From the NCBI GenBank assembly GCA_964503265.1, contig CAZCYO010000002.1, positions 194,604 through 258,603 on the forward strand: a stretch of 64,000 nucleotides of DNA, in the 5' to 3' direction. The translations under genes and the position numbers were made by a program. Positions 7,802 through 34,903 of this stretch are shown here, in pieces; within the stretch, counting starts at the first letter, position 1; every line of letters begins with the position of its first letter. The notes beneath the pieces were generated by a model. That model worked only from the letters and a program-made list of their open reading frames with translations, made no database searches and was not told the origin of the DNA. The DNA is from an uncultured Gammaproteobacteria bacterium (GTDB lineage: Bacteria > Patescibacteriota > Microgenomatia > Levybacterales > UBA12049).

Positions 7802-8509
7802 ATGAAAGACACTAAGATAATTGCTTTACCAAACGAGACGCAACCAAGAAATCTTCAGGAGTTAAAAAAGCCTGCTGTTTCAATCCAAGTACTTATTTTT
7901 TCAATCCAACATAATAAACTCACAGTAGCTCTCATTAACCGTCCACGAGAACCATTTCTTAATTTCTGGAGTATTCCGGGAGACATGATCGAGGAACATG
8001 ATCCACTTGAAACTGCTGCACGATCTATTTTATTTCGAAAAACAGGTATTCGAGACGTCTATCTCGAGCAGTTATATACATTTGGAGATATAGATCGAGA
8101 CCCAAGAGGAAGAGTTATCACCATCGCCTATTTCGCGCTTATCCCTCATACAAGTATCGATTTAACGAAAGCGCCACTAACACTTAAAGCAAAATGGGTA
8201 AATGTGAATGCTCTACCAGAATTAGCCTTCGATCACGCAAAAATTATTCAGTATGCAGTAGAACGGATCAAAGCAAAGCTTCTCTATAGTGACATCGCTA
8301 AAGCGCTCCTCCCTGAAAAATTTAGATTATCCGAACTCCAGCAGGTGTATGAAGTCATTCTCGGAAATTCACTTGATAAACGAAATTTCAGAAAGAAAAT
8401 GCTCTCACTGCATATTATCGAACCGACGCTAGAAACATATAAAGAAGGCAGTCATAGACCTGCCAAATTATTTCGATTTTGCACGAAAGAGCTAGTCATT
8501 TTTGATTGA
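7802..8509 (+). CDS. NUDIX-family hydrolase-like protein (NrtR-like architecture with C-terminal extension)
   Basis: 235 aa; degenerate Nudix box around WSIPGDMIEEHDPLETAARSILFRKTGI. C-terminal ~90 aa unassigned. Confidence 0.5.
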   Translation: MKDTKIIALPNETQPRNLQELKKPAVSIQVLIFSIQHNKLTVALINRPREPFLNFWSIPGDMIEEHDPLETAARSILFRKTGIRDVYLEQLYTFGDIDRDPRGRVITIAYFALIPHTSIDLTKAPLTLKAKWVNVNALPELAFDHAKIIQYAVERIKAKLLYSDIAKALLPEKFRLSELQQVYEVILGNSLDKRNFRKKMLSLHIIEPTLETYKEGSHRPAKLFRFCTKELVIFD

Positions 8510-8729
8510 TTTTTTTTGAACAAGAGTTAGTGTATTTAATACATTAACTAAATTACTGATTATTGCTATATATTTTACCTTATAGTAAAATCTCTTAGCA
8601 AAACTTATAGGCTGAATATATGCGTCAGGCGCATCTATTTGTCTAGAAGTACTAGGCAATTGTACTCCAAGTGAGACAGGCGAACGCTCGCCTATCCTCT
8701 CGCAAGGAGTGCTCTTTGACAAGTGAAGA

Positions 8730-9680
8730 GTGTTACATAATAAGAAGGAGGTACTATTGCGTCAATCTGCTAGTGAGCTGCTTCTGGGAGTTATCCTAGG
8801 CGCAGCAGACACATCGCTTGTTCATGTAGGAAACCATGAAGGAACTACGGGCACGTTTGAGATCTTTGGAAATGGCATATATGGTGGGTACACCCCACTC
8901 GCCAGCACCGATGATTTCAACATCTTCGCCACACGTTTCCCGAGTGGACAGATGGGGCTGATGAAAATCAGTAAAACCCCTGAGGCCGTTACTCTCCTCC
9001 TCAAAGAGGAGAAAACGCTCCGCACACTACAAGCGATCTCAGCACAGATCGATGAGGACTCAATTCGGAAAGGAGGCAATGCCTTCTACTACGGATCGAT
9101 GTTTCCCCGAGTGCATGACTCATTCCATGAGACAGACGTCACGGTACTATTCCTGGGTTTCGACCCTAATACAATCGCATCGTATCGACAGTTCGTCCCG
9201 CTCTCCGTTCTAACGCACGAACGCCGAGTAGATATCCAGACCTCGGTCTGGATTCTCGGCAAAGCACTGAAATTGCTCGACTTCCTGCACTCCAACGGTT
9301 ACACCTTGGGATTCATCGATGGCACAAACATGTTCTTGGAGACAAGTCTCCATGGAGTGTTCATGCTCGATTTCTCAAGCGCTGATGCCGTGACTTCGCA
9401 AGAAGCCCAGCGTGCAGAAGTCATCACGCTCGCTCATATCGTTTGGGAAGCTGTCGGAGGAACTGATTCCTCAGATCCTCCCTTTGCTAACCAGCAGATG
9501 ACGAGTACTGACTTTACAGATTTCATAGCCTTCTTCAAGCATCTGACCAATGGGGTCAGTGCTATCGAAGCTCACAAAGCTCTCTACGAGCTGGCTGAGC
9601 GTATTTGGGGAAAGGGGGAAAAGAAAGCCTCAGGCAACTATGGCCGACCATTCCATCCGTACATAAGCTACCCTCGGTAG
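8730..9680 (+). CDS. Divergent protein-kinase-fold protein (atypical or pseudo-kinase), GC-rich island gene
   Basis: Kinase-like order of elements: Gly-rich FGNGIYGG; LMKISK (VAIK-like Lys); …FLHSNGYTLGFIDGTNMFLETSLHGVFMLDFSSA resembles the YLHSxxIIHRDLKPxNILL…DFG catalytic segment with HRD->LGF and DFG->DFS substitutions. Strong RBS aaggaggt at 8743-8750 suggests the true start may be TTG at 8756. Local GC is about 50-55%. Confidence 0.45.
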   Translation: MLHNKKEVLLRQSASELLLGVILGAADTSLVHVGNHEGTTGTFEIFGNGIYGGYTPLASTDDFNIFATRFPSGQMGLMKISKTPEAVTLLLKEEKTLRTLQAISAQIDEDSIRKGGNAFYYGSMFPRVHDSFHETDVTVLFLGFDPNTIASYRQFVPLSVLTHERRVDIQTSVWILGKALKLLDFLHSNGYTLGFIDGTNMFLETSLHGVFMLDFSSADAVTSQEAQRAEVITLAHIVWEAVGGTDSSDPPFANQQMTSTDFTDFIAFFKHLTNGVSAIEAHKALYELAERIWGKGEKKASGNYGRPFHPYISYPR

Positions 9681-9695
9681 CGAAAGAAGGAGAAC

Positions 9696-10892
9696 ATGGG
9701 AGATAAAAGTAAGGTAGCAGGGTATAACTCTGCTGTCTACCACGAAACCGTCGAACGAATCACGAGGCGAGGAGGAGACCTCCACGACGAAGGGCGTCAG
9801 CAGTATTCCCAAACTGGGCGACTGCATCCGTACGTTGACCTCAGCACAGGAGGCCCAAGGCGGTCAATCAATGCGCTGATTCAGCGCGAAGACAGTCTCT
9901 GGGTTCTCTCAAGTGGTGTGAAGCTCCACGTCATCTATTGGACAGATGGCACGGGATCGTTCAGGACCTTCATGCGAGGTGTCTTCCGAAGCATGGAAGA
10001 AATCTTCGGCTATCTCGAAGGACTACGCAGTCAGTATCACATCGATATCGCGTTCGGCGTCATCCAGGATGATGAAGATCCACATCCCCCTGCACAACTC
10101 AGCGAAGCTGAAGGAAACGAAACTATCGTGCAACATATCCCCAAACTCGTCGCAGACGGCGGCGGGGGTGATGATCCCGAAGAATACGATCTGGGCCTGG
10201 CGGCGCTAGCATGGCGAACGCAATCAGACATCAATCTTTTCTACGGCCTGCGCGGACTCTCCGTAATGGTCGGCGATCAGATTGGACGAGGATGGGTATC
10301 CGGACCCGGACAATCCTTCAGGGGAAACACCATTCCAAGCGTCTACAGGCGACTTGGTATCCGTCCAACGGAACTCGAAGGCGTCGGGTCACTTCCCACG
10401 CGTGAACTCATGCAACTGGTGCTGCAGAAGTGGCATTTCTATATGTTGCTCCTGCGGCATGACTACGACCGGTACATCACCAACTGGTGGAAGCAGATCG
10501 TCGGCCCCAGCCGCGTCATCGAAATCTTCGATGGAAGCCTCGTCACACCGACTTGGGCAGGGCTTGCGTACATCACAGAAACGGCTCAACCGAGCCGCGA
10601 TGGGCTCGATCATTTCCTCAATAGCCAGCAGAATAAACTGGTCGACAAGAGGACGGTCAGCCTCGTCTGGGATGCGCTGCAAGCCGCCGAAGAGAACTTC
10701 GGCGCTCAGACTCGTCTCCCGGGATATGCTGAACTTCCCAAGCCTGGCGATTTGTTTATCGATCGTCGTGACCCGTGGCCGATCGGTCACCGTCGCTTCA
10801 GCGAAAACCCTTCCCAGGTAGCCCTCCAGCCGAACGTTCAGCCAGTTGCCGCAAAACGGCGAAGTGGCATCGACTGGAAGAAGTTGAGCTAA
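9696..10892 (+). CDS. Hypothetical protein (GC-rich island), 398 aa
   Basis: RBS aaggag 9 nt upstream; Arg/Gly-rich with acidic patch DGGGGDDPEEYD; no recognisable motif. Stem-loop 10909-10941 follows the stop. Confidence 0.6.
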   Translation: MGDKSKVAGYNSAVYHETVERITRRGGDLHDEGRQQYSQTGRLHPYVDLSTGGPRRSINALIQREDSLWVLSSGVKLHVIYWTDGTGSFRTFMRGVFRSMEEIFGYLEGLRSQYHIDIAFGVIQDDEDPHPPAQLSEAEGNETIVQHIPKLVADGGGGDDPEEYDLGLAALAWRTQSDINLFYGLRGLSVMVGDQIGRGWVSGPGQSFRGNTIPSVYRRLGIRPTELEGVGSLPTRELMQLVLQKWHFYMLLLRHDYDRYITNWWKQIVGPSRVIEIFDGSLVTPTWAGLAYITETAQPSRDGLDHFLNSQQNKLVDKRTVSLVWDALQAAEENFGAQTRLPGYAELPKPGDLFIDRRDPWPIGHRRFSENPSQVALQPNVQPVAAKRRSGIDWKKLS

Positions 10893-10908
10893 TACTCTTC
10901 ACTTCACT

Positions 10909-10941
10909 CCGCGGGGCGGCAGAGAAATTCTCTGTCGTCCC
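10909..10941 (+). terminator. GC-rich stem-loop after GC-island gene B
   Basis: gcggggcggcagagaaattctctgtcgtcccgc (nested palindrome); weak T-tract. Confidence 0.4.
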
Positions 10942-11260
10942 GCTACCTATTCCGATCACATCGGAACTGATGAGTTCTAGAAAATATAACGCATTTTCAC
11001 AGAACGAAAGGTAAATAGACTTATAATATGTCTTAATGATATAATATAGGCTGTTAATTGCACATTAATAATGAGCGAAATAGTAATAGCTGTTCAATGC
11101 GAACAATCCTGTCACTATTTTTCTCTTCATACTATCGATATTTACTAGTATGACTGGTAGCTTCATGTCCCGAAATATTTTCGAGATAGCAAGCTATCAG
11201 TCATGACCTTATGACTGATTTTTCCCGTGGCTGGGAATGGTTCTCTCTCTATGAAAGGAG

Positions 11261-12119
11261 CATGCCTTCTATGGATGATGCATTGAAAGCCCGTCTAGTG
11301 GAACTCGGACTCAACGAGGAACAAGTCGGCAAGATGGCTGAGGCTGGCGCACAATCCGCACCGGATATGGCGCTCACCTCGGCCGAGGACATCGTCGCAA
11401 TTACCGGCATCGGCATTATCGCCGCCCGCCGCATTGCGCACGCATTCGCTCCGACGATCGAACCTACTCCGGCCCCACCCGCTGCCGTCGCTGCTACTCC
11501 GCTGCCAGCGGTCAACGTCACCGTCACGAACAACGACCCCGGCACCATGCGGGTTTCGGAGCTTTTGACAGCTGTTGCCCAAGGCGAGCGCGATCGCGAT
11601 TTCGTCCAAGCGCTCACCAAGAAGGTCGGCGCACGAAGGCGTGTCTATGTCCGCGACGAAAATGGTCGCCTCGACGTCGATGCAACGATGGATCTCATCA
11701 ATGAGGACATCCACATCGGCGAAGAACCGGCATTCTGGGGCAATCAGCCCACAGAAACACTCACTGAAGTGCTTGATGTTCAGCGGTTCAACGACCCGCT
11801 GACCGGCGAACCCATCACCCGCGGCAATCCGTGGTTGAAGCTTCCCATCGACGACATGGCAGCCGTTGCCTATGCGAAGATGAAGAACTTCCTCCGCGGC
11901 ACGGAAGATCCCTATACCATCGTCAACGAGGCCCAGTCGGGTAATTCCGAGCGGTGGACGCGCGTCCAGAATCTCTGGAAGCGCGGTCTGCGTAGCACCG
12001 ATCCCATGACACTCCAAGCTCGGGCGGCCATCTATCGCCGTTCCGGCGAAGGGATCACCACTCCACGCGAGGAGGTGTCGGCTACGGCCGGCCCGCGGTT
12101 TCGCTACGACAAGGAGTAG
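11261..12119 (+). CDS. Hypothetical protein with a helix-hairpin-helix-like motif (GC-rich island)
   Basis: ORF 11211..12119. RBS gaaaggagc precedes ATG at 11261 (MPSMDDALKAR…). …AEDIVAITGIGIIAARRIAHAF… resembles an HhH DNA-binding motif, followed by an Ala/Pro-rich linker. Confidence 0.55.
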
Positions 12120-12204
12120 TTTCTTCTCGGACTACCTTCGGGTAGCACGAGAATCTTCCAACGCAACACAGTTCGGAATCTGGCTCAGGGATCATGCGAG
12201 GGAA

Positions 12205-12510
12205 ATGACGAGTGCGATTTTTTCTCCAGAGAATATCTGGGAAGATCTCGCACCTGTACATGTCCTCGCACTTAGGGCCCTTGCACCTGAACGTGTGTTC
12301 ACCCCGGGAAACCGGGAAGAATATCTCAAGCGAGTAACTGACGATCAGACGTTACAACAGATCGCAGACGCGATCTTCAGTGACGATTTTGGATTCGTCC
12401 GTTCCCTTCCAAAGGAATTCCAGGACTTGGAAAATCTGCTGATCCAGCTCGTACAAATCGCGTACCGCGAAGGTATCCGCCCTGCGGATGCTCGCGTTAA
12501 GGCGATGTGA
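12205..12510 (+). CDS. Hypothetical small protein (GC-rich island), 101 aa
   Basis: Intact ORF with upstream gcgaggga; last gene of the GC-rich block. Nested GC-rich hairpin 12513-12572 follows. Confidence 0.5.
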   Translation: MTSAIFSPENIWEDLAPVHVLALRALAPERVFTPGNREEYLKRVTDDQTLQQIADAIFSDDFGFVRSLPKEFQDLENLLIQLVQIAYREGIRPADARVKAM

Positions 12511-12626
12511 GCTGAGAGCGTATCGATAGTATTACCGGGGAGCGGGGTCTCATCATGAGACGTCGCTCTCCACCCTATTCTGATGTGTATCAGGACTGAT
12601 GATTCCGAAAGGATGAAAGGGAATTT

Positions 12627-14099
12627 ATGAATAGAGAACTTGTCTCATTCGTCGGAATAGGAATCGGCGAAGAAGCAAAAGGTGCTGCTACAGAATGGGC
12701 CACAGGCGAAACACAAGCGCATACGGTTTGGCGGTCTGGTGGTTCCCAAGCAGGCCACAATATAGTCCGTTCAGATGGACGCGAACATACATTTAGCCAC
12801 TTTAGTACTGGCACATTTGACGGCGCCCGTACATACCTCAAACATATGGTGATAAACCCCGTCGACCTTTTTACTGAAGGAATTGCTCTGGAAGAAAAAG
12901 GCATTGATAATCCCTTTAAACGAATCGTTATCAGTAGTGACTGTCTCACCACCACTCCGTATCATAGTGCAATGAGTCGATTCCGTGAAATAATGCGTGG
13001 ACCAGATAAAAAAGGAACCATTGGCACAGGTGTCGGCGAAGCAGTCATTGATGCACAAGAACATCCAGATCTCGCAATCCGTGCGGGAGAATTTACCGGT
13101 GATAGAGAGGCACTGCTTAAAAAACTTGAGGCAACTCGAAGATATAAAATAGATCAGGTTACGAGATTTATTAGCCAAGAAGGTTTTAGTGAGCTTCCAC
13201 CTGAAGCGATTGCAGAACTGAGAGTATTAGGGAATGAAACACTTAAAGAAAAAATCGCTGACTCTTTTCAAGGTATTGGCCAAATAGTCAGAATCGTTGA
13301 TGATTCGTACCTGGATGAAATGCTTGAGACAGAAGGAACAATCGTTCACGAACCTTCACATGGAGCACTTCTCCATCCAAGAGATGGCTTCGTCCCACAC
13401 GTTACGCAAATAGATCCACTCGGAAAAGACGTTTTTCGTTCTTTAGGAGAACGATTTTATCGCGGCAATGTTCTTCGCATCGGAGTATCGAGGTGCTATA
13501 TGACCAGACATGGTGCTGGACCTCTGGTTTCTTATGACCAAACAATGACACGAAATATTCAAGATGTCCGTAATAATGCAAATCAAAACGCAAATGAATG
13601 GTTAGGCGAAGTAAGAAACGGGCCATATGATATCGTCGCGACAAAATATGCTATAGACATCGCAGGTGGACCAGAGATGTTTACGGGATTAAAAATAAGC
13701 CATCTCGATGAACTAGCAAAACAACAACAGTGGGAGGTTTGTGAAGGATACAACTATACAGGCACTGAAGAAGATCTTAGTGATTTTTTTGAAACAAATA
13801 ATACTGGCGACATCATCCGAATCAAACGCCATCCAGATGATGGAAGCGATAGGCATTATGACCATCAACGCAAACTCACAAAGCTCTTAAAAGAGTGTAA
13901 GCCTATTCTAAATACACTAAAACCGACAGAGGAAAAATCACTTGAAGATGTATTCATTGATTATGTCGAAGAACAGTTGGATGTTCCTGTGGTGGCTGTA
14001 GCAAGAGGTCCACGAAAAGAAGATCGAGAACTAAGACCTGGATGGGAAGAATTATTTATGAACGGAAAACATACGAGAAAAGAAGTAAGACTCGGATAA
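12627..14099 (+). CDS. Adenylosuccinate synthetase-like protein (PurA family), divergent and extended (490 aa)
   Basis: PurA-family blocks align: GIGEEAKGA (vs GDEGKGK), GGSQAGHN (vs GGHNAGHT), KKGTIGTGVGEAV (vs TTGRGIGPAY), HEPSHGALLH (vs FEGAQGTLLD), MTRHGAGPLVS (vs STRVGAGPFP). The P-loop is altered (Asp->Glu, Gly->Ala, second Lys->Ala) and the protein is about 60 aa longer than canonical PurA. Confidence 0.65.
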   Translation: MNRELVSFVGIGIGEEAKGAATEWATGETQAHTVWRSGGSQAGHNIVRSDGREHTFSHFSTGTFDGARTYLKHMVINPVDLFTEGIALEEKGIDNPFKRIVISSDCLTTTPYHSAMSRFREIMRGPDKKGTIGTGVGEAVIDAQEHPDLAIRAGEFTGDREALLKKLEATRRYKIDQVTRFISQEGFSELPPEAIAELRVLGNETLKEKIADSFQGIGQIVRIVDDSYLDEMLETEGTIVHEPSHGALLHPRDGFVPHVTQIDPLGKDVFRSLGERFYRGNVLRIGVSRCYMTRHGAGPLVSYDQTMTRNIQDVRNNANQNANEWLGEVRNGPYDIVATKYAIDIAGGPEMFTGLKISHLDELAKQQQWEVCEGYNYTGTEEDLSDFFETNNTGDIIRIKRHPDDGSDRHYDHQRKLTKLLKECKPILNTLKPTEEKSLEDVFIDYVEEQLDVPVVAVARGPRKEDRELRPGWEELFMNGKHTRKEVRLG

Positions 14100-14104
14100 G
14101 AATA

Positions 14105-16084
14105 TTATTTCACACCAAGATCTAGATCTGGTAAAAATACTCTACTGACAAATGTTTGTGTAGCCACTCTTCTATATCCTGGATCATAAAAAGATCCTTG
14201 ATGATCAATCAGTTCTCCCTCCTGTATTTTTTCATTGTTATCTGGATAAAACCGGGCATACCCTTTATGAAGTAACCGTGACTGTAACAGATCATTTTCG
14301 AGCTGACGGAGAAGGTGTCTTCGTACGTCATCTTTTTGATCACCCGAACGAGAAAGATCTACATATCGTACTAACAGATCATCTCGTACCTGCTGTAATT
14401 TCGCTAAGTCCCCTATCCATGCACCACCTAAAAACGAATGGATTTCTGTAAAACTAATAACAGGAATTCGATCCTTACTTTCAATTGGTTGACGGAAAAC
14501 GAGCTGACCATCCTTTTTGTCTAACCAGAATTCTTTAACTAACCCAAGATTCTTAATTTCTGGCAATTCATAGAGGGGTGTAATCACTTTATGTCTATCT
14601 TCCGCTTTTACTTCTGGTCTCACAAAGACTACCGTATCAAGGTCTGATGTAAGACCTGCGTATCCTTTCATTTGTGATCCACAGAGTAAAAATCCGGGAT
14701 AAAATGTGTGCGAAAGCGCTGGAGTATCTGTTAGTTTTGTCGCAGCTACGCTAAGAAGACTCGCTTGATTACTTTCAAGTGTAGTAAGATCAACAGGAAA
14801 AACCTGTTGGAGATCTGGAATAGGAATACCTAAGACTTCTCCCTTTTCTTGTTCTAACATCCCTTCACGAACAAAATAGTTAATACATCTACTTACCTCT
14901 TCTTTAATTTCGCTATCTCCCTCAGCAAAAAATGACACAAGTGTATCCCATGCAGCATCCGCAAAGGCAACACCCTGACCTTTATCAATTCGAGCATAGT
15001 CTTCCCCGAGCTTAAGAATCGTTCTAACGGCTAGTCTATTTACATCCTTACCAGCAAATAAACTCTCAAGGGCAAGTAATGTATCTAGACCCCCATCCGC
15101 GTTCATCATACATGATGCAATGTCTTGTGCTGTTTTATCAATCACATCATTGATTCGTACATCTTTTTCCCAACGAACTCGAGCTTCACTCATACTTTTT
15201 GCATACGAAGAGGTAATAGGATCATATGTTTCTTCAATCGTTCGCATAGTTTCATTGAACTGAGAAGTAACGTCACTGATCGAATGTGCTTGGAGCTCAT
15301 ATTTGGAGGCTATACTACTATGCAGTACCGTATCAATTACCTGATTATTCCGGCCCAATATTCCGACAAACTTCCAATCTTCCTCTTTTACATCACCATT
15401 CGCATACGCAACTCTGGTTCCTTCTGTTACTGCTTCTGCTAGTTCATCGTCATTACTAAGCCGCAGGACCTCAAGAATATCTTCCGAACGAAGTAATCCT
15501 TTCCGTAACGCAAACGGGATTACATGCCCAGCTTTTACTACCCATTTTGGTTCTCCCATCCCTGGTTCAAGAACATCTCCATCAACAAAATTTGCGCGCA
15601 CATCGGTCTCACAGAGTAATCTAACCCATGCATCTTTATATTTCTCGGCAAATTTCTGTTCGCTTTCCTCAAGTTCCTCTGAATCTTTTTTAACTCTTCG
15701 ATCTGGGAGGATTTGGGATGGGAGATATAAAATGAGGCGGGCGTTATTTTCATCTGTTTCAAGAAAATTAGTGAGTTGAGAGTAGACGGCTCTCGCACTG
15801 TCAGCGGAAACGAGCCCTGTATTCATCGCCTCAGATATATCCATTCTCGGATCTGGAATCGCTGCGAAAAGAGTGCCGAGTGAATCATATAATTCTCGTC
15901 TCTCTGCCGCCTCTTTGAGAAGTCGTGGGTGTTCTAGTACTGACTGAGGTAAATTATTTTCACTGCCATCTCCCGCATAAAAAAGATCCACCCCTATAGG
16001 GCGCTGAAATGTAATATGTGGTTCTGTTTCTTTTCTTTCAGAAATAGGCTGATTTTCGCGTAACATATGCCTGAATTGTAGCAA
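14105..16084 (-). CDS. Large hypothetical protein with C-terminal Pol-beta-superfamily nucleotidyltransferase motif
   Basis: 659 aa; …GSQMKGYAGLTSDLDTVVFV… (residue ~465) fits the GS-x(9-13)-DhD minimal NTase signature. ~440-aa N-terminal region unassigned; ~190 aa follow the NTase motif. Confidence 0.6.
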   Translation of the reverse strand: MLQFRHMLRENQPISERKETEPHITFQRPIGVDLFYAGDGSENNLPQSVLEHPRLLKEAAERRELYDSLGTLFAAIPDPRMDISEAMNTGLVSADSARAVYSQLTNFLETDENNARLILYLPSQILPDRRVKKDSEELEESEQKFAEKYKDAWVRLLCETDVRANFVDGDVLEPGMGEPKWVVKAGHVIPFALRKGLLRSEDILEVLRLSNDDELAEAVTEGTRVAYANGDVKEEDWKFVGILGRNNQVIDTVLHSSIASKYELQAHSISDVTSQFNETMRTIEETYDPITSSYAKSMSEARVRWEKDVRINDVIDKTAQDIASCMMNADGGLDTLLALESLFAGKDVNRLAVRTILKLGEDYARIDKGQGVAFADAAWDTLVSFFAEGDSEIKEEVSRCINYFVREGMLEQEKGEVLGIPIPDLQQVFPVDLTTLESNQASLLSVAATKLTDTPALSHTFYPGFLLCGSQMKGYAGLTSDLDTVVFVRPEVKAEDRHKVITPLYELPEIKNLGLVKEFWLDKKDGQLVFRQPIESKDRIPVISFTEIHSFLGGAWIGDLAKLQQVRDDLLVRYVDLSRSGDQKDDVRRHLLRQLENDLLQSRLLHKGYARFYPDNNEKIQEGELIDHQGSFYDPGYRRVATQTFVSRVFLPDLDLGVK

Positions 16085-25065: not shown

Positions 25066-25133
25066 TCTCCATCCCTGGTGGCATAGTGTGTATTACGCTT
25101 AGTACACAGTGTGCCACCCAAGAGGGATGGAAC
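25066..25133 (+). promoter_or_regulatory. Long imperfect inverted repeat in the leader of GC-rich ORF 25155..25603
   Basis: ccatccctggtggcatagtgtgtattacgcttagtacacagtgtgccacccaagagggatgg: outer arms ccatccct/agggatgg and ggtggca/tgccacc plus imperfect inner arms; ends 10 nt before the RBS aaggagg. Confidence 0.4.
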
Positions 25134-25154
25134 GAAGAAGAAAGGAGGCCATAG

Positions 25155-25603
25155 TGAAAATGCCGAACGGCTACGAAGCGTTTCTCGCTGTCATGGAAGT
25201 CTTAATCGCATTCAATCATGAATTGAGGCGACGGAACATTCCGCCAGAGAACACTCTTCCACATCTTAATCCACGTGGATCGCAGAATGAATCAGGGATA
25301 CTCCTTGAGGTGCTTGATGACGGTAACACCGTTCTCATAACCGAGTGGGGATCTGTACGCATTCTTGAACACCCGGAACTCACACTGACTCAGAAAATCC
25401 AGATACGTGAGATCGTGATGAATCGTCTTGGTGCGAATCCGCATCACACAGATGACTCATCTCGAGCAGCTCTCTACCGTCTCTCCCAACTGGAAGACGG
25501 CAGGCCTCTGCCACAATACCTGAAACGGTACGAGAAGCGTAACCCATCAGTCCTGAGCGAGGAATGGGAACGGCTTCTCACGTTCTACTTATTACTACCA
25601 TAA
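25155..25603 (+). CDS. Hypothetical protein (GC-rich), ~149 aa
   Basis: ORF 25109..25603; RBS aaggagg at 25143-25149 precedes GTG 25155 / ATG 25160. The first ~45 nt of the long ORF overlap a long inverted repeat and are unlikely to be coding. Confidence 0.5.
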
Positions 25604-25663
25604 GGAAACCTACTACGTGAGCATGCGCTCACGTATCGTGTTCCATATACAGGAGAACGTAAC

Positions 25664-26074
25664 ATGACTGGCGGACAGATCACGCCCCCTCATCGTCCGG
25701 ATGTTCACATCGTTGGCCCGAATAACACGATACTGCAAGTAGTTCGGCCTCTCCGTCCCGTCACGGGTCAGGAGATCATGAACGCTCTACGCAGTATCCG
25801 GATGCAGGGCACACGCTACATCGCACGGCAAGTCTCCCCGCGAAACGGCATACCGTATTTTCAGATCGGCCGCCAAGGTGAACAGGTGCAGCAGCACTGC
25901 ATCGTTCGGGCCGGAGAAGATTTCACCGAAACCGCAATCGCCGCGACTGAAACATACACGACGTTCGCCCTGGGCGAACACGTCTGGGGTAACACCCAGG
26001 TCCGCAAGCGGGATGCCTATCGAGGGTGGATTAGCGCCACCTGCGAACAGTTGTATCTCCATCTTCCGAAGTAG
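25664..26074 (+). CDS. Hypothetical protein (GC-rich), 136 aa
   Basis: RBS caggag upstream; no recognisable domain. Confidence 0.5.
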   Translation: MTGGQITPPHRPDVHIVGPNNTILQVVRPLRPVTGQEIMNALRSIRMQGTRYIARQVSPRNGIPYFQIGRQGEQVQQHCIVRAGEDFTETAIAATETYTTFALGEHVWGNTQVRKRDAYRGWISATCEQLYLHLPK

Positions 26075-26102
26075 GAAGACGAGACTAAAAAGGAGTAACG
26101 TC

Positions 26103-26480
26103 ATGCCTGGAGTTCAAATCCGCACGAATACATCACAGTACCAGGAGCTGAGTGAGCGAGAACGACTCGATATAGCCACTGACATCTGTGGCACGATTGT
26201 AGGCGAACTCGATCTCTTGGAGGAGAGCGAAAGTGTAGCCGTATCCTGGACAGCCCCTTTTGAGGGAGCCAGTTCGATGAACGAAGTCGACTTCACTGTC
26301 GAAATTGAGTTCTCGAAACGCTACAAAAAGAAGCACATCAAGAGCCTAGCTCGTACAGTCGCTCAAGAGCTCAGCCGCTACACCTGTGTTCCAGCTGGAT
26401 CGTCGATCGGAGTCTGGATCAAGACTCCCTACCGGTACTACTGGTATCAAACCCAGAAATCTACCGAGGACCCTTCGTAA
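26103..26480 (+). CDS. Hypothetical protein (GC-rich), paralog of 33319..33708
   Basis: RBS aaaaggag then ATG 26103 (MPGVQIRTNT…). Shares the block …VAVSWTAPFEGASSMNEVDFTVEIEF… with …VLVSWASPFDEESSHNMPSFYITVKLVVEI… of the 33319 gene. Confidence 0.55.
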   Translation: MPGVQIRTNTSQYQELSERERLDIATDICGTIVGELDLLEESESVAVSWTAPFEGASSMNEVDFTVEIEFSKRYKKKHIKSLARTVAQELSRYTCVPAGSSIGVWIKTPYRYYWYQTQKSTEDPS

Positions 26481-28315: not shown

Positions 28316-28753
28316 CTATTGGACAGGTGCCTGTGGACTCTGCCGTTCAGCTTCGAGTAGCATGAATTTGCGACGAAGATCGTCCAGCTCCTGAGCGCGA
28401 GTGCGAGTGCCAAATGACACTTGCTCATGACGCAGGAGATATCGTATCTCCACTTCGAGGTATTGGATCGCCAGCACGTACTCACCTCGCTCGAGTGCCG
28501 AGATGACAGATTCGTAATAGTCGATCCGCTGCTGCCAGATATCTACATCCTTTTGAGAGTTACTCACAGCACCTCGAACGACCCAACGTTCGATACGCCA
28601 TCCGAGAGTCCACCAATGGAATACTTCAGCAATCTCCGTTAGGAGACCTTGGTTGTACCTCAGTTTTCGAGTGGCCTCCTCGAGTTCCAACTCTCCCTGG
28701 TGCTTTTCGTTCCGCAAGAGTTCAAGCGTCCGACTAACGACATCCGATGACAT
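28316..28753 (-). CDS. Hypothetical helical protein (GC-rich), 145 aa
   Basis: Intact ORF. The terminator module (29050-29110) of the upstream paralog cassette lies further upstream. Confidence 0.45.
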   Translation of the reverse strand: MSSDVVSRTLELLRNEKHQGELELEEATRKLRYNQGLLTEIAEVFHWWTLGWRIERWVVRGAVSNSQKDVDIWQQRIDYYESVISALERGEYVLAIQYLEVEIRYLLRHEQVSFGTRTRAQELDDLRRKFMLLEAERQSPQAPVQ

Positions 28754-29049
28754 CTCGCCCTCTCCTTTCTGAGAGATACTCCGTGTTTTCCTACGATTCT
28801 AGGGTAGATGATTTCAGCTGGATAAGCTTTTTGCTCCTCCTTTGGTTAGTTTCACATCATCACAGGTGATGACTTCCTAGGTATTTTGAAAAAATACACA
28901 CGAAGCCATCACCTATTACCCAGTACATTCATTCTGTATCAATGTGCTAAAAATCTCTCGACGACTAGAGACAGCGTTCTAGTCTAAAGCGTCAAAAAGA
29001 ATGAGGGAAGTTTAGCACAAACTGAAGGAAATTAGGGAAAAAGACTGCT

Positions 29050-29110
29050 AAAACGCGAAACGCCCCGGGGTAAGCCGGGGCGTATTTCGCACGAAATGTT
29101 AGTTACGGAA
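29050..29110 (-). terminator. Duplicated terminator module, copy 1 (two hairpins + T-tract on minus strand)
   Basis: Minus-strand: stop, catttcgtgcgaaat (hairpin), cgccccggcttaccccggggcg (8-bp GC hairpin), tttcgcgtttt. The 61-nt copy differs from 30257-30317 at 3 positions. Confidence 0.75.
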
Positions 29111-29941
29111 TTTGTACGCCATTTTGTCTGCCTCTTCTGCGGGCAGAGTAGCGGAGCTGATGTACTCCCTCCTGGTGACGATCCAGCCGTCCAGAATCTC
29201 AGTGACCCTGTAGACAATGATTCGCCAAGAAGTCGAACCTTTCTCTGCAAGCAAGAGACTGTTACCCGTGAAGATGATATCTCCTACTTTCACAGGAACG
29301 AGCGTGTGGTGCAAGAAGAGATCATAGCGATCTCGTTGCGTGCGATACACATAGGGCGAGACTCGCTCGCCTGACAAGTCGCTGCTGAGCAGATAGATAT
29401 TCCCCGCAGACGGAGGAAACTCATCGACTGTCCAGAGGGCATTATGCCCACCTGAAGTCTTCTTGATCTGGAAGAACAGTTCCCGAGGGAACTGTTCCTG
29501 CGGAACGATCTCCGAATCGCGGAGGGCTGCGATAGCATCCGCCACGACGCGGTTCCTGTCTGAGTGAGTTGTAAATCGACGAATATAGCTCAGTTTATGC
29601 ACCATATCCTCGATACTGCAGAGATGCGTCGCCCACCATGCACACGTGTAGCGACCACTCACGCGAGTCTTCTCATGCCCAGCTGACAAACCATCTGTCG
29701 AATATTCGGGAAGCCCGATATCCTTCAGAACGGTGTTGAGAGCCTGGACCGATTCGAGCTGCGAATAGCCAAAACCCGTTATGGTCATCGTACCAGTCAA
29801 GTTTTGGCCGAGTGTGCGCTCGACACCCTCAAGGTACGCCTTTTCACTGGCCCCGCGCAACACTCCAACAAAAAGATTGCCGTCCCGAAAGGACTCAGGC
29901 GTCATGTGTTCGAACCGTGATGGCATAATGGTCGTAGTCAT
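29099..29941 (-). CDS. Hypothetical protein; C-terminal domain paralogous to 30310..30717 and 30731..31183
   Basis: ORF 29099..29971; RBS ggaggaagg precedes M11 (MTTTIMPSRF…) at 29941. C-terminal …HNALWTVDEFPPSAG… matches …LLWTDDDFPSEV… and …VLWTIEDFPDSL… of the tandem paralogs. Confidence 0.6.
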   Translation of the reverse strand: MTTTIMPSRFEHMTPESFRDGNLFVGVLRGASEKAYLEGVERTLGQNLTGTMTITGFGYSQLESVQALNTVLKDIGLPEYSTDGLSAGHEKTRVSGRYTCAWWATHLCSIEDMVHKLSYIRRFTTHSDRNRVVADAIAALRDSEIVPQEQFPRELFFQIKKTSGGHNALWTVDEFPPSAGNIYLLSSDLSGERVSPYVYRTQRDRYDLFLHHTLVPVKVGDIIFTGNSLLLAEKGSTSWRIIVYRVTEILDGWIVTRREYISSATLPAEEADKMAYKFRN

Positions 29942-30017
29942 GCCTTCCTCCACATGTAAGTGAAACAACAATCAGGGCAACCATACAGGAAAGAAATCTT
30001 TCTTTCATCTATGGCAA

Positions 30018-30125
30018 CCCCGATATAAATCCGTAACTTATTAACGTGCCTGCCCGCCTATAATCGCTCTTTAAGCCGCTCCCTGATATACATCGGGAAA
30101 AGGCGAAAAGGAAGATATAGTGGGC
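30018..30125 (-). repeat. Conserved ~108-nt leader repeat, copy 1 (upstream of 29099..29941)
   Basis: ccccgatataaatccgtaacttattaacgtgcctgcccgcctataatcgctctttaagccgctccctgatatacatcgggaaaaggcgaaaaggaagatatagtgggc; about 90% identical to 31220-31329. Confidence 0.85.
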
Positions 30126-30256
30126 TATAAAAAATGACTATGTTCCCTTAGAAAGCTTTCAAATGAAGCTAAAAAGAGAATATATTCGAGGAAAGTATAA
30201 CAAAAAATCGCACTGAAGTCAAACTATAGGATTATTTACGTGGGTTGTCTAGCCCT

Positions 30257-30317
30257 AAAACGCGAAACGCCCCGGGGTAAGCCGGGGCGTGATTCGCACG
30301 AAATGATAGTTACGGAA
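30257..30317 (-). terminator. Duplicated terminator module, copy 2
   Basis: Same architecture as 29050-29110, directly after the stop of 30310..30717. Confidence 0.75.
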
Positions 30318-30717
30318 ATAGTACTTGCTTTGCCAGACGTCCTGGCAAGACCGAGACCGGTACATGGATCGGGACCAGAGCGACCCAGCCAATCTTCTTG
30401 AACAATCCCACGACTATGTAGCCGGGGATTTCGTAGGTGTTATTCCGCCTCCTGGCACGAGTACTTTCAGCGGTGAAAACAACAAAGTTCTTCCGAAGTG
30501 GCACTAGGTGGATACTACGTGACACGTCAGATAGATCCCGCTTTGTGCGAAGATGTGGGGGATCGATAAAAATCCCCTTCGAATAGTCGAGGATGAGCAA
30601 CTTTGTGCCTATGACTTCGCTGGGAAAATCATCATCCGTCCAGAGGAGCGGTTGACCTTTCCAACTGACGAGTGTCTGGAGGTAGCGATTGTTTACGAGA
30701 TAGTCTTGAAACGCCAT
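30310..30717 (-). CDS. Hypothetical protein, paralog family member (135 aa)
   Basis: MAFQDYLVNNRYLQTLVSWKGQPLLWTDDDFPSEV… aligns with the adjacent 150-aa gene; 13-nt gap suggests co-transcription. Confidence 0.6.
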   Translation of the reverse strand: MAFQDYLVNNRYLQTLVSWKGQPLLWTDDDFPSEVIGTKLLILDYSKGIFIDPPHLRTKRDLSDVSRSIHLVPLRKNFVVFTAESTRARRRNNTYEIPGYIVVGLFKKIGWVALVPIHVPVSVLPGRLAKQVLFP

Positions 30718-30730
30718 GGTATTCCTCCTC

Positions 30731-31183
30731 TTAGGCCAAACAAACCTGCTCTACCAGATAGTCTGGCAAGGCAGAGAGTTTGACATGAGACGCAGCCAGA
30801 GCAATCCAGCCACGCGCTTTAGTAACGTACTTCACATAGTGACATGTGACGAAGTATTCCCCGTTCCGAAGGATCGCTTTACGACTCACTGTAGTGAGGA
30901 TGATGTGTCCTCCACGAACGCGAACGAGTGAAAGGGTGCGTGAAACATCATAGGGATCGACTTCGGTACGAAGTGGTCGCGGACGAACCAGCTTGCCCTC
31001 ATCATACGCGAATATCTGCAAGCCGGTTTCCGGGAGTAGCGAGTCAGGAAAGTCTTCAATCGTCCAGAGGACAGGTAATCCTGAATCACTAACTAGCGTC
31101 TGGAAGTATCGTTTGTCAACGAGCTGATCTACGAGAGACATGGTGCCTCCTCCACAATCTATTGGTCTCCTATCAGAGACCAC
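30731..31183 (-). CDS. Hypothetical protein, paralog family member (150 aa)
   Basis: …LVDQLVDKRYFQTLVSDSGLPVLWTIEDFPDSL…; RBS ggaggagg; preceded by the conserved ~108-nt leader repeat. Confidence 0.6.
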   Translation of the reverse strand: MVSDRRPIDCGGGTMSLVDQLVDKRYFQTLVSDSGLPVLWTIEDFPDSLLPETGLQIFAYDEGKLVRPRPLRTEVDPYDVSRTLSLVRVRGGHIILTTVSRKAILRNGEYFVTCHYVKYVTKARGWIALAASHVKLSALPDYLVEQVCLA

Positions 31184-32335: not shown

Positions 32336-33031
32336 ATGCTCCGTAAGATTCAGCCGAGGCATGTGACGACTGTGGCAGTACTGGTATTCATCCTCTTCGT
32401 CATCAACGTTGGAATTGCGTATCGCGAAGATCAGCAGGCGAAGAAAGCCTTCTGTCCTCGCCCACCAATTCTGTCGATGAACGGATCAAGCGTATATGTC
32501 GTCCCAGAAGTCGATGTGGTCCATAACCCACAGCAGACAAATACGCTCTATCTCAAGGACGAGAAGAACAACCAGAGGACGCTTGCTCGGTTTACCGGCA
32601 TCCGCTTCTCCGCTCCAAGTTGGTCACCGACTGGAAAGTTCATCGTCTTCGTGGCTACGTATGTCGGAGAGAATACTCGCAGTGAAATCTGGCGAGTTAA
32701 TCCCGATGGCACAGGCTTACAATCCTTAGTCGGCTTCGAAGACACGTTCCAAAATCCCAACCACCCTCAGGTCTCGCCTGACGGAAGGTATGTGATTCTT
32801 GATGCCTATTCAGGCATTATGGAACTTGATGTCGAGACGCTTGCAGTAGCATGGGTGGTCGTATCCAAAACCGAGCAACTCGATGCCTCTGACTGGTACT
32901 ACTTCACCAACCCGACATACATCGGCACTGACGGTGCAATCTCGTACACATATTCTGGAGCCCACGAATCTGGCTTCGGCTATACCGACGAAAAAGGCGA
33001 GAACTACAACGTAACACCGTGGTGTAAATAA
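32336..33031 (+). CDS. Membrane-anchored TolB/PD40-like beta-propeller repeat protein
   Basis: N-terminal TM (VAVLVFILFVINVGIAY); repeats …SWSPTGKFIVF…, …PQVSPDGRYVIL… typical of PD40/WD40-like TolB blades. GC-rich. Confidence 0.55.
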   Translation: MLRKIQPRHVTTVAVLVFILFVINVGIAYREDQQAKKAFCPRPPILSMNGSSVYVVPEVDVVHNPQQTNTLYLKDEKNNQRTLARFTGIRFSAPSWSPTGKFIVFVATYVGENTRSEIWRVNPDGTGLQSLVGFEDTFQNPNHPQVSPDGRYVILDAYSGIMELDVETLAVAWVVVSKTEQLDASDWYYFTNPTYIGTDGAISYTYSGAHESGFGYTDEKGENYNVTPWCK

Positions 33032-33318
33032 CCACGACTATCAGGACGGGAGATGTGAAGAATATGGGTAACCTATCTTCACATCTCCCACCCCCTCACC
33101 ACATAAGCAACTAATCTTTTCCTGACAAATTCCAGACGAAATAGTCCTATAGCTTTACTTTTGTGGCTATTTTTGATACCATCACAGTATACTGATTATC
33201 AGTATGAACATTAACAATTTTTGAAAGTGACTATTTGGCCGTGCCAGAAGAGACATAACACACGTTATTTCCCTCCTGGCAACTGTGCCAAATAGATCTC
33301 ATACAGGAGTAAGACCGC

Positions 33319-33708
33319 ATGAAGGCGCTCGTGACGATCCTTTCTTCCGATTTCTACTTCGAAAAAACAGGACAGCAAGGTCGCCATGACTTAGCATATG
33401 CGCTAAGTGAGCGAATCGATTCGGAAATTAACCGACGGACACGAACAGGACATGATGTCCTTGTATCCTGGGCCAGTCCATTCGACGAAGAGTCGTCTCA
33501 TAATATGCCTTCGTTCTACATCACCGTCAAACTGGTCGTCGAAATCAATGGCGATCAGATCCTGAGCATCGTTTCAGAGATCAAGCGTGCCTTCGAGATC
33601 TCTCCTGCGATTCAGTACGGATCTATCTTCATCATCGAGATCATGCCCCATGGCTCGATCGACTCAAGTACCTTCGAGCTCGTGAAGGAGTATATGGAGG
33701 TTCGATGA
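33319..33708 (+). CDS. Hypothetical protein, paralog of 26103..26480
   Basis: 129 aa; shared VSW(A/T)(S/A)PF(D/E)… block. Its stop overlaps the start of the next gene by 4 nt (ATGA). Confidence 0.55.
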   Translation: MKALVTILSSDFYFEKTGQQGRHDLAYALSERIDSEINRRTRTGHDVLVSWASPFDEESSHNMPSFYITVKLVVEINGDQILSIVSEIKRAFEISPAIQYGSIFIIEIMPHGSIDSSTFELVKEYMEVR

Positions 33709-33995
33709 ACGAACTCGCGAGGGATCTCATTCTGATCTTCGGCCCGATGGCCGCATCTGCTCTCGTAGCAGTCGTCTACTGGAGGTGGCCGAGTCTGGAT
33801 ACGGACGATTCATTCCCTTACATCGCTCTTTGCTTCATCGCAGCGTCGTTCGTCCTTCCATGGCTTGGCTTCATGTGGCTGTCTAATCTCCACTGGATCA
33901 TAAGATTTATGTTAAGCGTAACATGCGCTTGTATAAGTTTTGTGATTCTCTTGGTGCTAACAGTGCGCCTCCCGGCCAGAAGTCCGACCGAGTAA
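33705..33995 (+). CDS. Small membrane protein (3 predicted TM), translationally coupled to 33319
   Basis: 96 aa, hydrophobic segments; ATGA start/stop overlap. Confidence 0.5.
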   Translation: MNELARDLILIFGPMAASALVAVVYWRWPSLDTDDSFPYIALCFIAASFVLPWLGFMWLSNLHWIIRFMLSVTCACISFVILLVLTVRLPARSPTE

Positions 33996-34264
33996 CACTT
34001 TCAAAAATTGAACACCACAAGCCCTGAAGGGCATAAAGGAGCGTGTGCGCTATCGTTGCATGAAAGCGCAACGAACTGAGCCCACTCTCCCACTCTTCAG
34101 GGCTCTTTTCGTTACCCCCAAAAAAAATTACAAAGTAATAGTTCCTTAGTATATACAAGAAAGCACCGGTTGGTAGCGACGTACCAACAGTATGCTTCTT
34201 GTCCCGCAAGTGGGAAGCCGAAGTCGTACTACAACACGCCGCACCAAGTTCCGGTGCTTAAAGA

Positions 34265-34903
34265 TTATGTTCGAGAGAGTATGTTCAGGATGAGATCCAT
34301 AGCCTCACGATGAAACTGAATAGCTTGGCTTCGCCAAGCCAGGCCAGCCGATGAATGACTAAGAAGTCCCTCTGACTTCTCTAGTAGTCCACGTTCGCTG
34401 ATAGCCCTGCGCATATCGGGATGTAACTCCCTCATCATCCTGAGCGTACTGGTGTCTGCCCTGAGCGTTTTGAGCAGCCACTGATCGAGTTTCGACCACC
34501 AGGTCTCCAGATCATACGAAGGCTGCGTATCGATCCAGGCAGCAAGCTCGGTTCCGGTTAGTTCCCAGTCGTCAAACTGTCCCCAACCGGAAACATACTC
34601 CCTGGCAAATGCCTCTGCATAGTATTCCCACGGGAATACAAAATAGAGAGGCACATCGCTACGCCGTTTCAAGTCACCTCCCACGAAGAAATGATACAAG
34701 ATGCTTTGTGCGAGAGTGAACGATCCAGTTCCAGTAGAGCCCCATTCGAATTGGAAGGCCCATGTAGGGATCTTCGTAAGTGGGGCGTGATTGACAGTAA
34801 CCACCCGTGAGTTATCACGTAAGACAAACCTACCTCGATAGACTACCGTGAGATCAAATTCAGACACGGGATCCTCCTTATGAGTATCTGGTACTACCTC
34901 CAT
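34265..34903 (-). CDS. Hypothetical protein (GC-rich), 212 aa
   Basis: Intact ORF, Trp-rich; no recognisable domain. Confidence 0.45.
   Translation of the reverse strand: MEVVPDTHKEDPVSEFDLTVVYRGRFVLRDNSRVVTVNHAPLTKIPTWAFQFEWGSTGTGSFTLAQSILYHFFVGGDLKRRSDVPLYFVFPWEYYAEAFAREYVSGWGQFDDWELTGTELAAWIDTQPSYDLETWWSKLDQWLLKTLRADTSTLRMMRELHPDMRRAISERGLLEKSEGLLSHSSAGLAWRSQAIQFHREAMDLILNILSRT

Follow-up and report, generated by a model that had tools for sequence, protein, structure and literature searches.

A conserved gene cluster of candidate phyla radiation bacteria with gene-specific GC enrichment and predicted hammerhead ribozymes between its genes

Is a short GC-rich block in a reduced, AT-rich genome a piece of recently acquired DNA, or can such a composition be a lasting property of the genes themselves? 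This question is raised by four consecutive genes, here called A to D, at positions 8700-12600 of a 64,000-nt stretch of contig CAZCYO010000002.1 (assembly GCA_964503265.1); the whole stretch is referred to as the window. A first-pass annotation had read these genes as a co-transferred island of a kinase-like protein and three further proteins, possibly an effector, toxin or signaling cassette, closed by a GC-rich nested hairpin. In our analysis the block makes up the left half of a larger conserved cluster, with five to six genes, of bacteria of the candidate phyla radiation (CPR, Patescibacteria). The cluster includes two AT-rich enzyme genes, one for an adenylosuccinate-synthetase-like (PurA-like) protein and one for a nucleotidyltransferase.

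The compositional break at 8700-12600 is real, with a windowed GC of 0.50-0.65 against about 0.40 in the flanks. In 1-kb windows GC is 0.51-0.55 at 9001-13000 and 0.39-0.43 on either flank; in 200-nt windows it rises from 0.33 at 8500-8699 to 0.50-0.65 over 8800-12600. All four open reading frames (ORFs) were confirmed, each with homologues elsewhere, and the starts of A and C were corrected. The G+C fraction at third codon positions (GC3) of A to D, which is listed in Table 1 together with all coordinates, compares with 0.26-0.31 in the four adjoining genes, which encode a sigma factor, an NrtR-like regulator, the PurA-like enzyme and the 659-aa nucleotidyltransferase. First plus second codon positions are nearly equal in GC between A to D and these neighbors; the excess lies almost entirely at third, synonymous positions, and the codon shift in A to D is a general shift towards GC. 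Among the 62 ORFs of the window, gene C has the highest GC3. The steps in composition coincide with gene borders to within about 120 nt. Intergenic DNA within the block is AT-rich like that of the host, and an AT-rich gap at 10900-11200 (GC 0.32-0.38) separates A-B from C-D.

Related loci were collected in two ways. A word-indexed search of 5.8 billion protein clusters gave 8 matches for A and 9 for B; most loci came from DNA-level scans and not from this protein search, and the species scan comprised one genome per species for 185,579 species. About 20 related loci carry A, B, the PurA-like gene, a gene for a helix-hairpin-helix (HhH) protein (either E394 or C together with D) and the gene for a Pol-beta nucleotidyltransferase of about 640 aa. 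E394 denotes a family of about 400 aa named after its 394-aa member in locus L008; in most loci it sits between the PurA-like and the nucleotidyltransferase genes. In about 17 distinct loci the genes follow one another as A, B, PurA-like and nucleotidyltransferase, E394 being present or not. L009, L014, L025 and L150, on short or cut contigs, show this order partially; L152 and L153 are fragmentary and contain no more than A-B or B. Wherever the contig is long enough, A and B are accompanied by the same flanking cluster genes. The idea that homologues of the four genes occur together therefore holds for A and B, which stay linked, but the unit extends to the PurA-like and nucleotidyltransferase genes, and C-D are replaced by E394 in most loci.

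The distribution of the cluster is narrow. All 14 genomes found in the species scan are Patescibacteria (Woesebacteria, Peribacteria, Daviesbacteria and Saccharibacteria), and so is every related locus with a named organism. The loci of Saccharibacteria and Daviesbacteria are called group 2 in the following, as distinct from group 1. Two loci join cluster genes physically: in L005 (12260-15487) the PurA-like enzyme and the nucleotidyltransferase are fused into one 1075-aa protein, and in L024 (8460-10706) B and the PurA-like enzyme lie in one 748-aa ORF, as judged from ORF continuity only. Pairwise identities of A, B, the PurA-like enzyme and the nucleotidyltransferase correlate with each other (r = 0.72-0.89); within group 1 the B tree is not fully congruent with the A and PurA-like trees. 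From the shared neighbors, the taxonomy, the fusions and the joint divergence we conclude that the cluster has been inherited as a block. This does not agree with a co-transferred island of four genes, since A and B belong to a larger unit with two AT-rich genes with which they diverge jointly and in part are fused. In the literature we found neither a description of this cluster nor a report linking hammerhead ribozymes with CPR bacteria.

If the cluster is inherited as a block, the GC-rich composition of a part of its genes needs another explanation. A comparison of GC3 was made over 19 loci, whose hosts have a GC of 0.34-0.56. Relative to the nucleotidyltransferase gene, GC3 was higher by +0.22 on average for A (positive in 16 of 17 loci), by +0.27 for B (17 of 17) and by +0.32 for E394 or C (13 of 13); sign tests on these counts overstate the independence of the loci, because these are phylogenetically related. 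In contrast to A, B and E394/C, the neighboring enzyme genes have a host-like composition. In L001, for example, B with a GC3 of 0.68 and the PurA-like gene with 0.19 are separated by only about 120 nt.

These data bear directly on the reading of A to D as one recent acquisition of GC-rich DNA, such as an effector, toxin or signaling cassette, whose composition has yet to adapt to the host. The sharp GC step, the lack of Pfam families in A to D, other GC-rich patches of the window that could be foreign DNA, and a distant relative of C in an organism with 60% GC (L149) are what one would cite for it. However, the GC3 excess is present in nearly all 19 loci, among homologues with a protein identity of 25-50%, and it is thus not the fading signature of one transfer. 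At this identity synonymous sites are saturated; therefore the bias must be actively maintained gene by gene. Moreover, A and B diverge in step with the adjoining AT-rich cluster genes, the intergenic DNA of the block is host-like, and the C-D or E394 module takes different positions in the cluster among the loci. Neither a tRNA nor flanking direct repeats were found in the window, and no integrase or transposase is encoded by the ORFs adjoining the block. No relatives of A were obtained from 2.9 million viral contigs (IMG/VR) or from 50,697 phage records, and none of B from 72,556 plasmid records. Of the marks of an island, the compositional deviation was found; insertion signatures and presence or absence of the block as a whole were not.

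The synonymous GC enrichment of A to D is thus a maintained property of these genes, for which selection on RNA or codons would be the simplest explanation. Selection of this kind fits better than recombination-driven conversion, because the compositional borders are as sharp as the gene borders. High expression was considered as a cause and rejected: the shift in codon usage is one towards GC in general, the ribosomal-protein genes beside the cluster in L026 are unbiased, and high expression alone is therefore an unlikely explanation.

The window contains six more short GC-rich patches of ORFan genes (25109-26480, 28316-31183, 32336-34903, 45148-45636, 49867-50691 and 58620-59240). Their ORFs have a GC3 of 0.45-0.63, with a genome average of about 0.35-0.40. 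Ten ORFs from these patches were scanned against Pfam; eight had no match, and the others matched DUF6166 and, weakly, a PD40 repeat. GC-rich ORFan genes seem to be a general trait of this genome.

What do the genes encode? The most likely start of gene A is the TTG six bases past an AAGGAGG (the ORF opens with a GTG at 8730), and the database protein has 307 aa. A model calculated from eight homologues with AlphaFold2 (AF2) has the bilobal fold of protein kinases (mean predicted local distance difference test, pLDDT, 82.7; predicted TM score 0.81). With this model Foldseek found 1868 matches in the Protein Data Bank (PDB) at E <= 1e-3; every one of the 50 listed is to a protein kinase (E 1e-8), among them PAK3, PKA, Aurora, PDK1, CaMKII and PknB. 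At the level of sequence families, the Pfam scan of A gave no match, Pkinase included, and PHROG gave a weak 'kinase' match (E 7.7e-5). The protein of the window has LGF at the position of HRD, as had been noticed before, and K79, N200 and D214 are present; aligned with the kinase domain of LanKC, it matches in the catalytic-loop Asn but not in the Asp. Among 18 homologues, those of group 2 have Q, L or M in place of the Lys of the VAIK motif, no catalytic-loop Asp is conserved, and the DFG Asp is D, N or G. The full set of catalytic residues (VAIK Lys, HRD Asp with Asn at +5, DFG Asp) is hence not found across the family. Given this lack of conservation, gene A, as modeled, is best called a pseudokinase. 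The kinase-like nature claimed for it stands with respect to the fold, and the choice left between an atypical kinase and a pseudokinase falls on the latter.

Gene B is, according to its model, a von Willebrand factor A (vWA) domain with an intact predicted metal-binding MIDAS (metal ion-dependent adhesion site). The AF2 model (pLDDT 74.8) has the vWA fold; Foldseek matched it to the integrin beta I-like, ITIH1 and SpaC vWA domains with E-values of 2.5e-6 and above. The residues D84, T86, S88, D125, D128 and D194 are invariant across 12 loci. The MIDAS motif reads DxTxS (D84-G-T86-G-S88) and not DxSxS. No Pfam family matched B at E <= 1, VWA included, and comparison of family profiles for B and E394 with PDB sequences gave nothing significant. 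For A to D as a whole, scans with Pfam, NCBIfam, PHROG and PADLOC yielded nothing of use beyond the weak PHROG match of A.

The PurA-like protein matches PF00709 over its full length (residues 9-464, E 3.6e-42) and has 49-53% identity to its counterparts at the other loci. It scores far below the equivalog models of adenylosuccinate synthetase, with 113 bits where NF002223 requires 402 and 95 bits where TIGR00184 requires 396, and its match to phage PurZ has an E-value of 0.002 only. P-loop-like GxxxxKG and GGxxAGH motifs are kept. When the protein is aligned with PDB 3ue9, RNGPY and a gap of five residues stand opposite TGRPRRTGW; the TGRxRR loop, which in E. coli PurA (TTGRRRR) binds aspartate, is thus absent. 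Probably the protein is a ligase that is active, depends on GTP and acts on another substrate.

The nucleotidyltransferase carries the motif GSxxKGYAxxxSDLD, which in the protein of the window reads GSQMKGYAGLTSDLD and conforms to the pattern hG[GS]x9-13Dh[DE]h. Seven of eight family members match Pfam Polbeta (5.8e-8) and NTP_transf_2; the protein of the window alone stays under the Pfam cut-off (14.5 versus 21 bits). The nearest solved sequence is that of HI0073, of the minimal nucleotidyltransferase (MNT) type (E 0.002). For the N-terminal part of about 450 residues no family or solved structure was matched. This part has conserved stretches of its own, e. g. DVRANFxDGDVLEPG.

Genes C and D differ from the other members in their variability. 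The likely start of C is Met21 (the ORF opens at 11211), and the database protein has 282 aa. The HhH-like motif that had been noticed in C proved to be part of an HhH domain in profile comparisons: the C-family profile matches the N-terminal domain of RAD51 (E 8e-4). C and E394 have only this N-terminal domain of 60 residues in common (hmmsearch E 9e-12; hhalign 97%). C has 56 relatives according to an exhaustive search with HMMER, some with 280-315 aa and others with about 400 aa, the latter ending in an effector-associated domain (EAD), EAD7 or EAD1. EAD7 and EAD1 are adaptors that recruit effectors to conflict systems centered on vWA proteins or NTPases (Kaur, Burroughs, Iyer, Aravind 2020, PMC7159879). 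C of the window has no EAD, and no EAD match was obtained on the other cluster proteins scanned. In L149 (8023-10521) two tandem genes each encode a C-like domain with a C-terminal EAD1, which is the paired-adaptor layout described for conflict systems. These tandem genes also mean that the C domain is not restricted to CPR bacteria.

D has homologues in L008, L150 and L151, each of them directly after E394, a C-like gene or another HhH gene: E394 is followed by D in L008 and an HhH protein by D in L151, and in L150 a pair of C-like and D-like genes adjoins the nucleotidyltransferase gene back to back. C-D thus appear to be a variable output module of the cluster, which in the window is placed between B and the PurA-like gene. 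The D frame of the window remains open, with similarity to the N-termini of the homologues, back to about 12094, i. e. about 37 codons before the ATG at 12205. Between 12094 and 12204 it contains no ATG, GTG or TTG, and relative to C, whose end it overlaps, it is in the +1 frame; the D homologues of L008 and L150 begin before the gene in front of them has ended. Truncation of D, use of a non-canonical start codon, a frameshift or an error in the assembly could account for this.

The borders of the two gene pairs are marked by RNA elements. Two motifs of the type III hammerhead ribozyme, HH1 between B and C and HH2 between D and the PurA-like gene, are supported by covariation, and self-cleavage is predicted for them. 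With the Rfam model Hammerhead_3, HH1 (matched at 10942-11015) scored 28.2 bits (E 0.01; gathering score 48.5) and HH2 16.5 bits. A pattern search for CUGAUGA-stem II-GAAA with a stem I hairpin found the motif at the matching place in L001, L008, L009 and L014, and reading of the sequences added hammerheads in L005 and L013 as well as HH2. A custom covariance model, R1, was built with HH1 and the L009 copy held out. It recovered both (HH1 with 46 bits and E 1.7e-9, the L009 copy with E ~1e-9) and found two further copies in L151. Among eight hammerhead sequences 95.3% of the cells are paired, against 33-52% in slid controls, and both-side changes occur in 11 of 16 pairs. Minimum-energy folds reproduce the expected three-way junction. 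In the core (C3-U4-G5-A6-N7-G8-A9, G12-A13-A14, A15.1-U16.1, H17) HH1 is fully canonical and HH2 canonical; deviations are the U-U of HH2 at 10.1/11.1, in place of G and C, and a C at U4 in the L013 copy.

The position of these elements is regular. Each of the eight group-1 loci in which the sequence past B is included has a hammerhead there, ahead of the next gene, and HH2 is the positional homologue of those in front of the PurA-like gene in L001, L005, L008, L013, L014 and L151. No hammerhead was found in any Saccharibacteria or Daviesbacteria cluster. For 6 of 10 hammerheads, a strong GC hairpin stops 3 nt short of the ribozyme. Stem III extends with its 3' strand into the ribosome-binding site (RBS), and the start codon lies 5-20 nt beyond stem III; in HH2 this strand (AGGG) overlaps the RBS of the PurA-like gene. 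The nested GC-rich hairpin at the end of the block, which the first-pass annotation had pointed out, does exist at 12537-12571 and is one of these hairpins. It is part of a module of hairpin and hammerhead that would serve RNA processing, and is neither the border of an island nor a terminator. Terminator function was rejected for both hairpins of the block, as neither is followed by a T-run and the terminator scan calls neither.

Further copies of the hammerhead were seen outside this arrangement. In L151 (14897-14957) one lies directly past the D homologue, with nothing but convergent genes beyond it; for this reason it can only shape the 3' end of the transcript. L005 (20074-20134) and L021 (12426-12486) have a hammerhead of the same type outside the cluster, with no GC step there. 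In group 1 the compositional border of the cluster coincides with hairpin and hammerhead. As general markers of GC borders the hammerheads were rejected, given the two copies outside the cluster and the group-2 clusters with none. In contigs of IMG/VR, R1 gave 124 matches in 80 loci (L029-L108), with up to five per contig; the viral copies include the trailing GAAAGGGAA...AUG. Clustered hammerheads flanking genes are known from prophages (PMC3088659). The window hammerheads thus belong to an already known type of ribozyme that is seen in viral contigs and prophages.

A third RNA-level element may concern A-B alone. The two genes are bracketed by a 15-nt inverted repeat (ACAAGTGAAGA / TCTTCACT), a pair that also occurs in L008 and L151; L013 has a different complementary pair. 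RNAduplex z-scores for the arms were -5.1 in the window and -4.0 in L008 and were not significant in L001 and L005. In most group-1 loci the motif ACACTCTT follows the stop codon of B. The repeat may form a stem between the 5' and 3' ends of the A-B mRNA.

Table 1. Positions of the cluster genes, their RNA elements and an adjoining regulator gene in the window
Feature	Position	Strand	Evidence and remarks
NrtR-like regulator (NUDIX domain and winged helix)	7802..8509	+	Pfam NrtR_WHD, E 6e-26, and NUDIX
5' arm of 15-nt inverted repeat bracketing A-B (5' untranslated region)	8721..8735	+	Arms 93% complementary
Gene A, pseudokinase (as modeled)	8757..9680	+	AF2, Foldseek, homologue alignment; GC3 0.55
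Gene B, predicted vWA domain with MIDAS motif (D84-x-T-x-S88) and C-terminal extension	9696..10892	+	AF2, Foldseek; GC3 0.60
3' arm of inverted repeat, just past B stop	10890..10904	+	Contains ACTCTTCAC, which is found after B stop in related loci
GC-rich 15-bp hairpin directly 5' of HH1	10911..10943	+	ViennaRNA fold, z -6.0; folds beside the ribozyme; no T-tail
HH1, type III hammerhead motif, canonical core, long stem II	10944..11013	+	Predicted cleavage after A10949
Promoter-like site upstream of C	11016..11045	+	TAGACT, 18-nt spacer, TATAAT with preceding TG; 10 of 12 consensus positions
Gene C, RAD51-N/SAM-like HhH domain, Pro/Ala linker and domain of about 200 aa	11271..12119	+	Profile comparisons; GC3 0.68
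Gene D, small partner of C	12205..12510	+	36-41% identity to L008_144; homologues in L150, L151; GC3 0.52
GC-rich nested hairpin directly 5' of HH2 (9-pair stem around 6-pair stem)	12537..12571	+	Fold; no T-tail
HH2, type III hammerhead motif	12573..12621	+	R1 model, 74.6 bits; predicted cleavage after A12577
Divergent adenylosuccinate-synthetase-like (PurA-superfamily) enzyme, core member	12627..14099	+	Pfam PF00709; GC3 0.30, host-like
659-aa protein with C-terminal Pol-beta/MNT-type nucleotidyltransferase domain, core member	14105..16084	-	Pfam, family-wide; GC3 0.28

A peculiarity of amino acid composition may be added. A to D combined (1117 aa) contain no cysteine, compared with 0.6% in the host genes of the window. 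Absence of cysteine as a trait of the families was rejected, as the homologues of A and B elsewhere do contain it.

Which function could a cluster of this composition have? The explanation to which we incline, without great certainty, is that of a CPR gene cluster for signaling or conflict that depends on nucleoside triphosphates (NTPs), with mRNAs split by hammerheads and a maintained GC3 excess. Judged from domain content, the PurA-like enzyme and the nucleotidyltransferase would form a core that modifies or transfers nucleotides. The vWA protein and the pseudokinase would act as a pair, as metal-dependent sensor or scaffold of this core, and the HhH protein could be an output or adaptor module. 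All members together would then make up an NTP-dependent system of the signaling or conflict type. In the loci of the Woesebacteria/Peribacteria type, including the window, self-cleavage of the type III hammerheads would release separate A-B and C-D messages. After cleavage the upstream fragment would end in a protective GC hairpin, and the RBS of the next gene would be freed from stem III.

Several points weigh against this explanation. The function is read from domain content alone. PADLOC assigned no known defense family to any cluster member, and most loci do not lie in defense islands, the one in L026 being next to a ribosomal-protein operon. A MoxR, STAND or PP2C partner as is typical of vWA systems was not found. 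On the RNA side, no hammerhead reached the Rfam gathering score in the window or in seven related loci, and the U-U of HH2 at 10.1/11.1 and the C at U4 of the L013 copy imply that some copies may be inactive. A link between ribozyme and composition is not general, since group 2 has the GC3 excess with no hammerhead and two hammerheads outside the cluster have no step. The relatedness of the loci, as mentioned, also reduces the force of the GC3 statistics.

A more far-reaching version of the proposal appears rather improbable to us: that of a new NTP-dependent immune or conflict system, so far known only from CPR bacteria, in which the PurA-like enzyme and the MNT-type transferase would make or transfer a modified nucleotide as signal or toxin. 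The vWA protein and the pseudokinase would exert control, the HhH protein with its swappable domain would be the output, the mRNAs would be split by hammerheads into separately stabilized messages, and the strong, lineage-independent synonymous GC enrichment of the genes that encode no enzyme would be kept by selection on their RNAs. If true, this would be a rare case of gene-specific selection at the nucleotide level that lasts across bacterial classes. The genomic contexts of the cluster are varied and include a CBASS (cyclic oligonucleotide-based antiphage signaling system) operon in L001, transporters in L005 and a ribosomal-protein operon in L026. In L001 (5410-8185; BroJett037) the CBASS-like pair (SAVED, SMODS/AGS-C) lies about 1.8 kb upstream of the cluster; it is the only locus seen beside a known defense system.

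The main rival explanation is metabolic. CPR bacteria rely on nucleotide salvage, and the cluster could serve a CPR-specific salvage or interconversion of purine or NAD nucleotides under NrtR-like control, with the PurA-like ligase and the nucleotidyltransferase as its enzymes and A, B and C in regulatory or scaffold roles. An NrtR/NUDIX gene indeed adjoins the cluster in the window, in L001 and in L013, and in L150 the cluster genes lie beside NadE, NUDIX and NAPRTase genes, the NUDIX gene being close to the C-D pair. Housekeeping-like contexts as in L026 and the lack of PADLOC matches would also be expected of a metabolic cluster. A true adenylosuccinate synthetase, however, is not indicated by an enzyme so far below the equivalog cut-offs and lacking the aspartate-binding loop. 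Furthermore, the cluster is rare in the species scan, and a pseudokinase, a vWA protein and an EAD-linked HhH protein are typical of signaling and conflict rather than of salvage. We regard the metabolic explanation as rather unlikely.

Less probable still is an origin from phages or other mobile elements, with a viral gene pool repeatedly replacing A-B and C-D by recombination or, in a variant, with GC-biased gene conversion. The abundance of the same hammerhead with its trailing RBS in IMG/VR, the gene-flanking hammerheads of prophages, the weak PHROG match of A and the partial incongruence of the B tree within group 1 could be explained in this way. Against this, the searches of viral contigs and phage records gave no relatives of A and that of plasmid records none of B, and none of the loci has a called gene for phage structure or integration nearby. 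The compositional steps, falling at gene borders within about 120 nt, are also sharper than recombination tracts predict. Least credible of all is the recent island, which the compositional and linkage data presented above have largely refuted.

The cluster is of interest in several respects. CPR bacteria account for a large part of the diversity of bacteria, and to the majority of their conserved gene clusters no role is assigned; the recognizable parts of the present one make it testable in the few Saccharibacteria that are genetically tractable. The cluster is a clear chromosomal example of hammerhead motifs between cistrons, with a hairpin on the 5' side and the RBS in the 3' strand. The role of bacterial hammerheads, a long-standing question, could here be tested through transcript ends. 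Finally, GC3-rich genes within a co-inherited cluster, in hosts with a GC of 0.34-0.56, contradict the equation of a GC step with recent transfer. This calls for caution in the compositional detection of islands in reduced genomes.

How does the cluster compare with known systems? With PurA and PurZ the cluster enzyme shares the full-length PF00709 fold and the GxxxxKG and GGxxAGH motifs; unlike these it has no TGRxRR loop, and it is sometimes fused to the nucleotidyltransferase or lies in one ORF with the vWA protein. The nucleotidyltransferase has the motif FGSRxKGxAxxxSDLDLAV in common with the MNT of HEPN/MNT toxin-antitoxin pairs (HI0073), but here the domain is C-terminal in a protein of 640 aa, and there is no HEPN partner among the cluster genes. 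The TerY-P triad, which Anantharaman, Iyer and Aravind reportedly described in 2012, is said to consist of the TerY vWA protein, a Ser/Thr kinase and a PP2C and to be tied to the synthesis of nucleoside-like metabolites. The likeness is a loose one, in that a vWA protein is paired with a kinase-fold protein beside nucleotide-metabolizing enzymes; in contrast to the triad, no gene list contains a PP2C or Ter genes, and the kinase-fold protein has no conserved catalytic residues.

Closer parallels exist to the vWA-centered conflict systems (PMC7159879). Unlike in these, no MoxR AAA+ protein, STAND NTPase or GAP1 GTPase is among the called genes (VMAP was not searched for); the NTP users are the PurA-like ligase and the Pol-beta nucleotidyltransferase instead, and C of the window has no EAD. 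Their hosts as stressed in that work are multicellular bacteria, whereas those of the cluster are unicellular, reduced CPR bacteria. Both combine variable outputs and a component that uses NTPs with a vWA protein whose MIDAS is intact, and relatives of C carry the very EAD7 and EAD1 adaptor domains of these systems. The hammerhead motifs, in turn, differ from the type III hammerheads of prophages and other bacterial sequences (PMC3088659) in that they lie inside a chromosomal CPR cluster, mostly after a strong GC hairpin, mark a compositional border and score below the Rfam gathering score. In their architecture they are alike: they share the CUGAUGA ... GAAA core, the A-U at 15.1/16.1, the predicted cleavage after NUH, the closed stems I and II and the open stem III, and in both cases they are located between genes, some of them just before a start codon.

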